A DNA stretch of 64,000 nucleotides. Origin: an uncultured Pseudomonadota bacterium (GTDB lineage Bacteria; Pseudomonadota; Alphaproteobacteria; Rs-D84). Of the stretch, positions 7,642 to 63,348 are shown piece after piece (position 1 is the first letter of the stretch; every line of letters begins with the position of its first letter). The translations under genes and the position numbers were made by a program. The notes beneath the pieces were generated by a model that was given only the letters and a program-made list of their open reading frames with translations, searched no databases and was not told the DNA's origin. The stretch covers positions 2,843-66,842 of the forward strand of contig OOHM01000001.1 of the NCBI GenBank assembly GCA_900320405.1. The letters run 5' to 3'.

Positions 7642-9145
<1,504 letters not shown>

Positions 9146-9264
9146 ATAGAGAATACCGTTTACACGAAAACGGTCAAATCCAAACGCGACTGTCTGAATA
9201 TCTCTTTTTCGAACAAATTCTGGTATCAGCGGAATTACTGCCTGTTTCAGAATTTATAACGATT

Positions 9265-9341
9265 GGGTCAGTAGTTCAGTTGGTTAGAATGTCGCTCTGA
9301 TACAGCGAAGGTCGAAGATTCGAGTTCTTCCTGACCCACCA
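9265..9341 (+). tRNA. tRNA-Ile(GAT)
   Basis: Cloverleaf GGGTCAG..CTGACCC-ACCA; anticodon stem TCGCT/AGCGA, loop CTGATAC. Confidence 0.95.
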
Positions 9342-9644
9342 TTTTTTTGATGAGGTTGGAATCAAAAACACATTTTTGTGTTTGTGATTCCAGATATTCT
9401 AACGATTATCGTCGGAATCTGCTTTTAATTGGCAAACATTGTAAATCGGTTTTTATGTCACGAATTAGATTTTCACAGAAATGTGATTGTTTGATTCGAT
9501 GAACATCGTAATCTCAAAAATCTTTCTAAAGAGTAATCACGAAAGTGATAATTCAATTTTAGATAGCAAGAATCAACTAATGCTTAAAAACTCATTTAAG
9601 TTATTTTTAAGTGCGTGAAGACATTCTCTTCAAGCATAAGATAA

Positions 9645-12385
<2,741 letters not shown>

Positions 12386-12470
12386 TTATCTTATCGTTTG
12401 ACTTGTTCAAACGATATGCTTGAAGAGAACGTTGAAGTTGATTCATTAACACGATGTTCGCTGGATTTAT

Positions 12471-12584
12471 TCTGGTGATTATAGAGCGGGAGTCACCCTC
12501 TGTTCCATTCCGAACCAGACAGGGAAACCCCGTATCGCCGATGGTACTTTGGCTTAAGCCACGGAAGAGTAGGTCGTCGCCAGA
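12471..12584 (+). rRNA. rrf: 5S rRNA
   Basis: CCATTCCGAAC, GATGGTACT, GAGTAGGTCGTCGCCAG; flanking stem CTGGATTTATTCTGG/CCAGAATAAATCCAG. Confidence 0.95.
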
Positions 12585-12614
12585 ATAAATCCAGTATGAT
12601 ATAAAAACCGTTTT

Positions 12615-29473: not shown

Positions 29474-29932
29474 TTAATTTTTATTCCACAGCCAACAATT
29501 TTCATCGGTATGTGTTGCATTGTATGTTGTTGCTCCGTCTGGCCATCCGGCACAGGACATTTTATTTTCTGTCAGCTCAAGAGCTTCATTTATTTTATAA
29601 TCCACTAGGCCAAGTGTTGGAATGATCTTATCGTAATCGCTATCATTTACACCATTGATTGCTTGTTCTTCTGATGTTGCCCATACGCCAAAATAATTAC
29701 CTGTTATACCACCATTGTTTGAGTCATAACTGACCAAAGCAGGCAAACTTGCTACATTTGTTCCGCCATGTTTATCGGCAACTTCTATTTCCACCATATC
29801 GGTATCAATTAAATCTTGTTTCAATGCGTCCGCTGCATCCACATAGTCCCGCGATGTGACGGTCGCGCTTGTTGCGTATGCGCCGGTTGCCAAAACGGAT
29901 GCGATTACACTGAATAATAAAGTTTTGCTCAT
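29474..29932 (-). CDS. Secreted VTSxxYVD-family protein
   Basis: Signal peptide, ATVTSRDYVDAADALKQD, C-terminal CAGW..ENCWLW. Confidence 0.8.
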   Translation of the reverse strand: MSKTLLFSVIASVLATGAYATSATVTSRDYVDAADALKQDLIDTDMVEIEVADKHGGTNVASLPALVSYDSNNGGITGNYFGVWATSEEQAINGVNDSDYDKIIPTLGLVDYKINEALELTENKMSCAGWPDGATTYNATHTDENCWLWNKN

Positions 29933-29960
29933 AATATTCCCCTCTTTGTTTCAAATAAAT

Positions 29961-30171
29961 AACCGTCAATGAAAATGACGGTCGGGGTGTTAACAGAATC
30001 ATACGAAACAATGACCCATTGACCTTCAATATATAATCAATGGCACCCCGACCCGTGTCGGGGAACTAATCATCACGGCACAAAATATGCGAAACTTATG
30101 GATTACGACATATTCGTGCCGGTTTCGTACAAGGCCTGTTAAAGCCCCGAACCAAATTCCCATCTGGCTCA
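29961..30171 (-). ncRNA. Candidate structured leader RNA, copy 1, ending in a terminator-like hairpin
   Basis: Multistem fold conserved with covariation in 58645..58855; TTGTTT-17-TAGAAT promoter directly upstream. Confidence 0.65.
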
Positions 30172-30344
30172 CTTTATATTCTAATCAAAACCCGGTATTT
30201 AAACAAGTAAAAAAATTAATGGTTAGTGGTTTTTGGAATGTTTTATAATAGTTAAATTCATTTTTTACTAACCAGTACTCACTAACACTAACCACTAATT
30301 TCTCTTTTTTCTTGCGCATATTTATGATATAATTACCCCTAAGG

Positions 30345-38375: not shown

Positions 38376-38462
38376 TGGTGGGAGTGGGTGGATTCGAACC
38401 ACCTCAGGCTTAAGCCAACAGATTTACAGTCTGCCCCGGCTCTCCAACTCCGGCGCACGCCC
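38376..38462 (-). tRNA. tRNA-Tyr(GTA)
   Basis: GCAGA-CTGTAAA-TCTGT anticodon arm, long variable arm, GGTTCGAATCC, CCA. Confidence 0.95.
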
Positions 38463-38508
38463 AGAACTTAACTTTTGTGGCCTGCCACACGCGGCCTTTG
38501 GCGAAGTG

Positions 38509-38583
38509 TGGTGCGGGCAGCGGGACTCGAACCCGCACATCAAGCTTGGAAGGCTTGCGTACTAGCCCTTGTACTATGCCCGC
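38509..38583 (-). tRNA. tRNA-Gly(TCC)
   Basis: GCGGGCA..CAAGC-CTTCCAA-GCTTG..TGCCCGC-A-CCA. Confidence 0.95.
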
Positions 38584-58639: not shown

Positions 58640-58644
58640 AGGTA

Positions 58645-58855
58645 TGAATCCAATTGAAGTTGTTGGGTTTGGGATTGTGAAGGGGTTCCAAACAGGCATG
58701 GCACAACGCATACAACAATTTCTGTTTGTATGGTGTGTCGCCCGATTTTCCCCGTTATGGGGTCGGGGTGCCGAATGTGTATATCTGAAGACATTCGGAG
58801 TCATTTGCTTGTATGATTCCTCAACGCCCCGACACACACTTCCAAATTTGATTCA
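58645..58855 (+). ncRNA. Candidate structured leader RNA, copy 2
   Basis: Same motif blocks and covarying stems as 29980..30150 on the minus strand. Confidence 0.65.
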
Positions 58856-58894
58856 CGCACAACAACAGATTCCATAGGAAGGGGGAAAATCATC

Positions 58895-59470
58895 ATGAAA
58901 AAATTGGCATTTATATCGTTGGCGGCGATAATGGCGTCGTTTGCCGCGTCCGCAGACACAATCGTTACATCAAAGACATATGTTGATTCCAAAGATAATT
59001 TAAAACAAAATGCAATTACCGCCGGTGCGGCAAACAGTGTTGCGTTATATACTGGCACAACCACGACAAATGGTGGTGCAGATTTTACATCAAGAAATTT
59101 GTACAGCGATACCACCGCATCCAACTATGTCGCGAATACTCACTCAACTTATATTCCAACAATGGGTGCGGTTATGGCCCAGATTACAAGCAGTGTTCCG
59201 TCAGGGACGGCAAATAATGTTGCAACATACGATGCCCAGGGTAAATTAAGTGCGACCGGTCGCGGTGTTTACAGTGATGCATCGTCATACACGGCGGCCA
59301 ACGATGCGGATAAATTGGTCGCGGCATCCGCATTGAATACGGTTAAAACGGCGGTTGATACATTACAAAATTGCACGCATACATGTGCATCCAGTGACCC
59401 AACCAATGCGCCAAATGCATGTGATTTGATAACAATCAATTGTGTCCAAACGGCATCGCAGGGTGGTTAG
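58895..59470 (+). CDS. Secreted VTSxxYVD-family protein
   Basis: Signal peptide, ADTIVTSKTYVDSKDNLKQN; internal duplication GxANxVAxY..RxxYSD..xY. Confidence 0.8.
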   Translation: MKKLAFISLAAIMASFAASADTIVTSKTYVDSKDNLKQNAITAGAANSVALYTGTTTTNGGADFTSRNLYSDTTASNYVANTHSTYIPTMGAVMAQITSSVPSGTANNVATYDAQGKLSATGRGVYSDASSYTAANDADKLVAASALNTVKTAVDTLQNCTHTCASSDPTNAPNACDLITINCVQTASQGG

Positions 59471-63273: not shown

Positions 63274-63348
63274 TGGCAGTCCCAATGGGAATCGAACCCA
63301 TGTTACCGGAATGAGAATCCGATGTCCTGACCGCTAGACGATGGGACC
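63274..63348 (-). tRNA. tRNA-Glu(CTC)
   Basis: GGTCCCA..TCGGA-TTCTCAT-TCCGG..GGTTCGATTCC..TGGGACT-G-CCA. Confidence 0.93.

Follow-up and report, generated by a model that had tools for sequence, protein, structure and literature searches.

A large, previously uncatalogued family of leader RNAs in small-genome proteobacteria and its candidate role as a conditional terminator

Layout of the leader unit

The DNA analysed here is a stretch of 64,000 nucleotides, referred to over its whole length as the window, and it carries two copies of a structured leader RNA, copy 1 on the minus strand and copy 2 on the plus strand (Table 1). Both copies lie where the original prediction had placed them, and the ordered sequence blocks that they were said to share do align. 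The leader unit is arranged in the order of a sigma-70-type promoter, an RNA of about 190 nt with multiple helices, an intrinsic terminator, a ribosome-binding site (RBS) and a gene, and the RNA comprises about 225 bases. The promoter proposed for copy 1 is retained among its homologs: a pattern of a TTG-type −35 element and a TAnnnT −10 element with a spacing of 16–18 nt is found at a fixed distance in 77 of 101 homologs, and upstream of the model start 84 of the 101 copies have a T at −30, while positions −8 to −3 form an A/T-rich hexamer. Transcription of copy 1 probably starts a few nucleotides before P1. An inverted repeat, TGGTTAGTG...CCACTAACCA, and repeated GGTTAGT words lie just upstream of the copy-1 promoter, and a SNORD70 match at this inverted repeat is at chance level.

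The 5′ GGGGC segment (Z) is able to pair either with the nearby GGCCTT segment (LOC) or with the 3′ CCCC, and the last bases of segment C double as the base of the terminator stem. This stem has 8 pairs, which are 96.3% paired and all compensatory in the 101-sequence alignment, and 84 of the 101 copies have at least five U residues in the 8 columns past the stem. The hairpin with a U-rich tract that had been noticed from the sequence is present in copy 1 (window 29983-29953) but absent from copy 2, which has the same helices as copy 1 and is missing the terminator hairpin. Since the RBS is located about 5–20 nt past the U tract, behind the terminator, the downstream gene would be expressible by read-through only. 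Elsewhere, the window contains a complete rRNA operon and further tRNA genes, and tRNA genes lie directly upstream of two RNA copies.

Table 1. Positions of the leader copies, of the segments of copy 1 and of neighbouring features. Coordinates without a contig or locus label are window positions.
Feature	Position	Strand	Description
Copy 1	29950-30175	(-)	Covariance-model match
Copy-1 promoter	30178..30206	(-)	−35 TTGTTT (30201-30206), 17-nt spacer, −10 TAGAAT (30178-30183)
Upstream inverted repeat and GGTTAGT words	30215-30310	(-)
P1 hairpin	30149..30170	(-)	GAGCCAGAT / ATTTGGTTC, GGGA loop; 9/9 pairs compensatory
Z, P2b 5′ strand, LOC	30131..30148	(-)	GGGGC 30144-30148; TTAACAG 30136-30142; GGCCTT 30131-30136; P2b 7/7 pairs compensatory
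P3 5′ strand	30122..30130	(-)	GTACGAAAC; partner 30002-30009; all four Watson-Crick pair types at nearly every position
P4 hairpin	30076..30121	(-)	Variable length, CGGCAC ... GTGCCG; fold and covariation, helices 8-10
Segments A and B	30044..30065	(-)	A TTCCCCGAC (30057-30065), B GGTCGGGGTG (30044-30053); A:B local hairpin, or B with C
P6 hairpin	30016..30043	(-)	CCATTGAT / GTCAATGG, TATAT..TGAAG loop; 9/9 pairs compensatory
P7 and 3′ strands of P3 and P2b	29990..30015	(-)	P7 5′ GTCAT (30011-30015); P3 3′ (30002-30009); P7 3′ TGATT (29997-30001); P2b 3′ CTGTTAA (29990-29996)
Segment C	29980..29989	(-)	CACCCCGACC; pairs with B (9-12 bp), or with Z through CCCC only
Intrinsic terminator	29953..29983	(-)	GACCGTCA / TGACGGTT, then ATTTATTT; 8/8 stem pairs compensatory
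Copy-1 RBS and gene	29474..29945	(-)	RBS AGAGGGG (29939-29945), start codon 29932; gene 29474-29932; 152-aa protein, signal-peptide-like N-terminus, no Pfam family
Copy 2	58641-58861	(+)	Covariance-model match, 76.9 bits with model R2
Copy-2 gene	58895-59470	(+)	Start 58895; 191-aa secreted-type protein
Complete rRNA operon	7642-12585		16S, tRNA at 9265-9338, 23S, 5S
More tRNAs in the window	38379-38583 and 63277-63348
Own-genome copy	C4:232589-232809	(+)	Covariance model
Own-genome copy, best-scoring	C4:265008-265247 (= L045:1501-1740)	(+)	Covariance model
Own-genome copy	C4:117097-117324	(+)	Covariance model
Own-genome copy	C4:331558-331761	(+)	Covariance model
Own-genome copy, weak	C3:327196-327429	(-)	Covariance model
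tRNA gene directly upstream of an RNA copy	L046:1348-1421	(-)
tRNA gene directly upstream of an RNA copy	L045:660-733	(+)
Related small secreted-type protein	L002:1727-2437
Related small secreted-type protein	L050:1719-2300
Opposite-strand model match	L155:1488-1692	(-)	25.5 bits; overlaps a strong match on the other strand
Opposite-strand model match	L157:1507-1726	(+)	18.8 bits; overlaps a strong match on the other strand

Distribution of the leader RNA and its downstream genes

A BLAST search followed by a covariance model has shown that copy 1 is one of seven copies in its own genome (0.914 Mb, four contigs, 93.6% complete). Model R1, built on a four-copy RNAalifold structure without P2b and P3, finds the RNA in 59 of 61 genomes of the genus with at least 542 matches, at least 36 of them in one genome of about 1 Mb. 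RNAalifold with 49 and then 30 sequences gave a closed fold, and model R2, built on this closed fold, finds the RNA in 111 of 121 genomes of the order with at least 1019 matches, a total that is a lower bound because at most 18 candidates were scored per genome. All 81 genomes of the window's own genus are positive in this order search, and the tallies with model R2 for the families within the order are 89/91 for f1, 16/19 for f3, 3/4 for f2, 2/3 for f6, 0/1 for f4 and 0/2 for f5. In a class-wide draw, the RNA is present in 18 of 151 genomes and 17 of 150 genera, corresponding to about one in nine of the other genera sampled, and the positives include genomes of 1.2–3.5 Mb with one to nine copies; relatives with larger genomes have fewer copies. 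In a phylum-wide draw, 6 of 151 genomes are positive, and all six are labelled as belonging to the same class. DNA of the stretch is present in bovine gut metagenomes from 10 studies.

Many copies in relatives lie 80–400 nt from a contig end with the downstream gene cut off (for example G019:C3:120-383, G019:C6:120-387, G060:C2:240-469 and G044:C12:81-310). This pattern points to assembly breaks within downstream gene families that are repeated or variable.

Comparison with Rfam 15 at gathering thresholds has shown that only rRNA and tRNA reach threshold in the whole window and that only tRNAs do so in 40 homolog-bearing loci. Neither window copy matches a known family, and this check does not refute the proposed new class. 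When both window copies were scanned at a permissive E-value, the top match was sRNA-Xcc1 on the opposite strand, with 21.3 bits against a threshold of 53 and E = 0.3; this weak match and one to MicF are at chance level. In the part of the literature open to full-text search, no description of this RNA was found, which is weak evidence that it is unpublished. The leader RNA is a large, previously uncatalogued family that is unmatched in Rfam 15, and it is essentially certain that the family and its core fold, described below, exist.

The copies are not placed at random relative to genes. In 64 of the 94 evaluable copies, a same-strand open reading frame (ORF) of at least 60 amino acids with a Shine-Dalgarno (SD)-like motif starts no more than 45 nt from the model end, whereas the control direction yields 5 of 94, and further ORFs start equally close without a matching SD pattern. 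Outside the order, an ORF starts within 7–71 nt in 24 of 25 copies, the remaining one starting at +258. The leader is also kept by orthologous genes across species, as seen for four EcoRI-type methylases from four genomes and for four related small proteins.

Among the seven copies of the own genome, four precede small signal-peptide-like proteins without a Pfam family, one precedes a GT8 glycosyltransferase (1.9e-32) and two have no same-strand gene. Searches of Pfam and PHROGs returned nothing significant for these four small secreted proteins, and a related-locus search with one of them returned a single locus. A family of small secreted-type proteins of 152–236 amino acids comprises the two window genes and two proteins at other loci (Table 1); they have a V-T-x-x-x-Y-V-D motif after the signal peptide, and three of the four have a C-terminal Cys...Cys-(L/W)-L-W-N. 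The best-scoring copy has a promoter and a strong terminator and faces a convergent gene of 595 amino acids, and so it appears to be a stand-alone RNA gene.

Among the 94 downstream ORFs of the order, a crude test assigns a signal- or transmembrane-like N-terminus to 59, and 77 are without a Pfam family at E ≤ 1e-4. Of the 17 Pfam-assigned ORFs, four encode EcoRI-type adenine methylases and six encode glycosyl or capsule transferases (GT8, two GT2, GT-D, GT92 and Stealth), and the remaining ones include Mrr_cat, ResIII, ankyrin, Chlam_PMP, an Ephrin-receptor-like Cys-rich protein and HTH_3. Genes outside the order include two outer-membrane beta-barrels, an autotransporter, a Chlam_PMP protein and an FkbM methyltransferase. 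The downstream theme is one of envelope, surface-glycan, defence and orphan accessory genes. The original prediction of a leader for secreted fibre-like genes fits four of the seven own-genome copies but is too narrow for the family, whose genes are very diverse.

Core fold and a second covarying helix set

Copy 1 has a minimum free energy of −91.1 kcal/mol (z = −7.2), which none of 200 shuffles equals, and the folding z of the copy at C4:265008 is −6.0. When more sequences are given to RNAalifold, a single architecture emerges, with which nearly every single-sequence minimum-energy fold agrees. This core fold (conformer I) consists of P1 with its GGGA loop, a 5′ GGGG:3′ CCCC helix, P2b and P3, which close a junction, and the terminator as the last element. 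Inside the junction are P4, a CCCCGAC/GUCGGGG hairpin formed by segments A and B (A:B), and P6.

Covariation was assessed in an alignment of 101 sequences, 76 from the order and 25 from other orders, out of more than 1000 matches. The core fold is paired in 95.1% of cells compared with 72.6% in shuffled alignments, and 62 of its 65 pairs show compensatory changes, with similar figures for the order alone. Doubly changed cells number 1220, against 315 in shuffled alignments and at most 228 in slid controls, and since the sequences are paralogs and relatives, such cell counts overstate the number of independent events. P2b displays all four Watson-Crick pair types at almost every position, as does P3. 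The covariation of the stems seen in the two window copies is thus massive across the family, and CCATTGAT/GTCAATGG (P6), TACGAAAC/GTTTCGTA (P3) and CGGCAC/GTGCCG (P4) are real helices. The 5′ GGGG:3′ CCCC closing helix and the A:B hairpin together show 31 doubly changed cells compared with up to 39 in slid controls, and so covariation supports these two elements of conformer I only weakly. G-U pairs occupy 717 cells and A-C mismatches only 69, indicating that the constraint acts on the RNA of this strand.

An unbiased mutual-information scan of all column pairs has found strongly covarying pairs outside the core fold. They form a second helix set (conformer II) with 137 doubly changed cells in the 101 sequences, compared with 45.9 ± 5.1 in shuffled alignments, none of 500 of which reaches this value, and at most 31 in slid ones. 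The first helix, B:C, pairs GUCGGGGWG with CW′CCCCGAC; its central six pairs are 99.0% paired, and its pair 383:523 occurs as AU58/UA24/GU12 with 3 unpaired. The second helix, Z:LOC, pairs GGGGC with GCCCU (59:75, GC62/AU18; 58:76, GC71/GU22/AU8). The third helix, P7, pairs GUCA with UGA..U (486:508, UA74/CG14; 488:505, AU75/UA8). Within the order, position 425:439 of P7 is unpaired in 46 sequences and the other positions are nearly invariant, so that P7 gained covariation support only when the 25 homologs from outside the order were added; a fifth pair, 489:503, is unsupported, with 48 unpaired. The set also includes a lone covarying pair, 62:482 (UA49/CG27/UG8). On a FastTree tree, columns 345, 457, 52, 418, 49 and 66 (A5 numbering) changed 23, 11, 24, 23, 12 and 19 times, respectively. 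In a tree-aware test of independent pairs, none went the opposite way, and only two to six pairs fell on supported branches, a number too small for significance.

The idea that the leader has two folds is borne out to the extent that a second covarying helix set incompatible with the first has been found. The 3′ CACCCCGACC had been given two partners, of which the internal GGTCGGGGTG is backed by covariation and the one at the 5′ end is weakly supported. P7 encloses the 3′ strand of P3 with a linker of 0–1 nt, and by the established stereochemistry of H-type pseudoknots P7 and P3 should therefore be unable to form together. If Z:LOC and B:C form as pseudoknots, they could be present at the same time as P2b and P3 and need not replace them. 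Two covarying and mutually exclusive helix sets together would be a rare and clean comparative signature of an RNA switch.

The second helix set is linked to the terminator. B:C is contiguous over 9–12 bp in 77 of 100 sequences, and so it covers the first 3–6 nt (GAC, GACC or GACCG) of the 5′ arm of the terminator. The median free energy of the terminator is −11.6 kcal/mol, and it becomes −6.2 once GAC is removed. Taken as duplexes on their own, B:C and A:B have median free energies of −18.4 and −11.8 kcal/mol, respectively, and B:C is the stronger in 100 of 101 sequences. A nested fold forced to contain B:C reproduces Z:LOC and P7 exactly, at a median cost of 11.8 kcal/mol for the full length and 9.1 up to segment C (n = 99), a possible pseudoknotted P2b being left out of the count. 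At the shared GAC positions, the pairs of the terminator are better compensated than those of B:C.

Conditional termination, rival readings and known systems

The leader has the generic features of terminator-type riboswitches and attenuators, namely a covarying, structured 5′ UTR domain with an intrinsic terminator directly after it and, by computation, a competing pairing, B:C, which is conserved, covaries and uses 3–6 nt of the terminator arm. A cis-regulatory role of the leader is likely. More specifically, we think it reasonably probable that the leader acts in cis as a riboswitch-like conditional terminator. Comparative analysis thus supports the originally proposed new attenuator- or riboswitch-like leader class, in which ligand binding is a candidate property only.

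A plausible mechanism is as follows. Transcription from the sigma-70-type promoter would begin a few nucleotides before P1, and the following stretch of about 190 nt would fold as a multi-helix domain. In conformer I, P2b and P3 would close the junction that holds P4, the A:B hairpin and P6, and the 3′ CCCC may pair with the 5′ GGGG; GAC(CG) would then be free, allowing the full terminator stem to form and transcription to end. In conformer II, the 5′ GGGGC would pair locally with GCCCU in Z:LOC, P7 would exclude P3, and the internal GUCGGGGWG would pair with the 3′ CW′CCCCGAC over 9–12 bp. B:C would thereby take the first 3–6 nt of the terminator 5′ arm and halve its predicted stability, so that read-through would be favoured. 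A:B with the terminator would thus mean stop and B:C read-through, as in the 1:2 / 2:3 / 3:4 layout of an attenuator. Whether a small ligand, a protein or the kinetics of transcription, some input could bias the choice of conformer. That the leader switches, which conformer is the 'on' state and that a signal exists are suggestions drawn from these modelled structures. Several points weigh against a conditional terminator: B:C overlaps the terminator by only 3–6 nt, where the terminator pairs are the better compensated; in nearest-neighbour energies, nested conformer II is predicted to be less stable than conformer I by a median of 9–12 kcal/mol; part of the second helix set may be compatible with P2b and P3 through pseudoknots; the cell counts overstate independent events; and some copies lack a terminator, as does copy 2 of the window, or a downstream gene, as does the best-scoring own copy.

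The strongest rival reading is that the RNA is a stable, stand-alone small RNA that acts in trans or sequesters a protein and that the downstream genes are expressed by leakage through the terminator. The unit does have a promoter of its own as well as a strong terminator, the closing helix of the terminated RNA lies between P1 and the terminator so that both RNA ends are protected, and the shape is conserved while the helix sequences vary, as expected of an RNA that is recognized by a protein. Moreover, the best-scoring own copy has no same-strand gene downstream, and 4 of 101 loci with ample flank had no ORF within 250 nt. However, this reading leaves the tight, oriented coupling to an RBS and ORF (64/94 against 5/94) unexplained, an RNA acting in trans would hardly require the 7 to at least 36 divergent copies seen per genome, no Hfq was found in the own genome and no CsrA above the cut-off, and it is not obvious what purpose a second helix set that covaries and overlaps the terminator would serve in a small RNA. 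We therefore consider it rather unlikely.

A static, pseudoknotted leader would account for Z:LOC and B:C without any switching, as a constitutive 5′ UTR module for mRNA stability, translation or membrane targeting whose final hairpin is a stabilizer only. Z:LOC with P2b would be a sterically ordinary H-type pseudoknot with a first loop of 2 nt and a second loop of 0 nt, B:C could stack on P2b, the lone pair 62:482 fits a compact junction, and many of the downstream proteins are exported (59/94 by the crude test). Nevertheless, P7 and P3 appear to exclude each other and yet both covary, a hairpin followed by at least five U residues in 84 of 101 copies is a canonical terminator, and A stays complementary to B although B:C is stronger, all of which makes a static fold improbable.

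Some ribozyme classes are large, multicopy and pseudoknotted and contain invariant single-stranded bases, and because the leader is likewise large, multicopy and probably pseudoknotted with invariant single-stranded bases, it might process the 5′ UTR as a catalytic RNA, by self-cleavage or otherwise. This is very improbable, since no Rfam ribozyme family matches the RNA even at E values up to 10, an intrinsic terminator with alternative pairings is typical of attenuators, and a cleavage site cannot be inferred. A repeat at the level of DNA, for instance a MITE, REP-like element or recombination site, is the least credible reading of all: it would suit the high copy number, the many copies of relatives near contig ends and the weak opposite-strand matches at two loci, which are expected anyway of a hairpin-rich element, but the excess of G-U over A-C cells shows selection on one transcribed strand, the orientation and ORF distance are fixed, the promoter and terminator hold fixed positions, and the leader stays with orthologous genes across species.

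For the conditional terminator that we favour, the proteins encoded by the own genome (93.6% complete) bear on the possible inputs. It has no match to GGDEF, DAC or Hfq, its best CsrA match, within a 599-aa frame, reaches 20 bits where the cut-off is 27, it has a single gene of the NusG family (C4:80755-81066), and Rho is present, and so its repertoire of regulatory proteins seems sparse. Several known types of control were set aside. A c-di-GMP or c-di-AMP riboswitch was rejected because there is no Rfam match and no GGDEF or DAC in the own genome; antitermination by a NusG paralog (RfaH, LoaP, UpxY) because a second, specialized protein of the NusG family was not found; a small RNA linked to Hfq or CsrA because in the own genome Hfq is absent and CsrA is under the cut-off; and leader-peptide attenuation because the first 30 nt contain no ATG in 35 of the 101 copies, the ORFs that begin at this ATG in the other 66 ranging from 1 to 80 codons.

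A bolder interpretation, possible but doubtful, is that the leader represents a new riboswitch class, a bistable and partly pseudoknotted aptamer that senses a cellular or host signal and gates a 'variable shell' regulon. Such a regulon would consist of outer-membrane and secreted proteins, surface glycosyltransferases and restriction-modification genes and would amount to up to several per cent of all genes in genomes of about 1 Mb with few protein regulators, making RNA-based attenuation a dominant regulatory system of the lineage. If the favoured reading is right, an order of uncultured, small-genome proteobacteria of gut and rumen subjects 7 to at least 36 genes in each genome to a single shared leader, and, measured against the genome, few cis-regulatory RNA regulons would be larger. 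The genes concerned, for envelope proteins, surface glycans and restriction-modification systems, determine the appearance that a cell presents to hosts and phages, and the leader family gives access to the gene regulation of bacteria that still resist cultivation. More than 1000 natural variants of an orphan riboswitch or attenuator class would be ideal for structure determination and ligand hunting.

Among known systems, c-di-GMP-I (GEMM) riboswitches occur in many copies per genome before varied surface, secreted and uncharacterized proteins, and the leader family is similar in this respect; however, it has no Rfam match, no GGDEF was found, and this RNA is larger with a different architecture. 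RfaH/ops-JUMPStart, LoaP leaders and EAR RNA act on similar gene classes (surface polysaccharide, secreted or envelope, accessory). These systems use a specialized NusG paralog or are processive, whereas there is one NusG here and the Rfam families JUMPstart and EAR are unmatched. T-box leaders can reach tens of copies per genome and, like the present leader, exceed 200 nt, have multiple helices and choose between a terminator and an antiterminator, but the T-box models of Rfam do not match this RNA, and the genes downstream here are not aminoacyl-tRNA or amino-acid genes. The leader differs from the riboswitches of Rfam in having no sequence or model similarity to them, and from trp-type attenuators in having no conserved leader peptide, a terminator overlap of only 3–6 nt and a long-range swap of P3 against P7. 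Its likeness to terminator-type riboswitches and trp-type attenuators lies in the plan of the whole: a structured 5′ leader precedes an intrinsic terminator, the middle one of the segments A, B and C can take either neighbour as its partner, and some bases of C also belong to the terminator stem.
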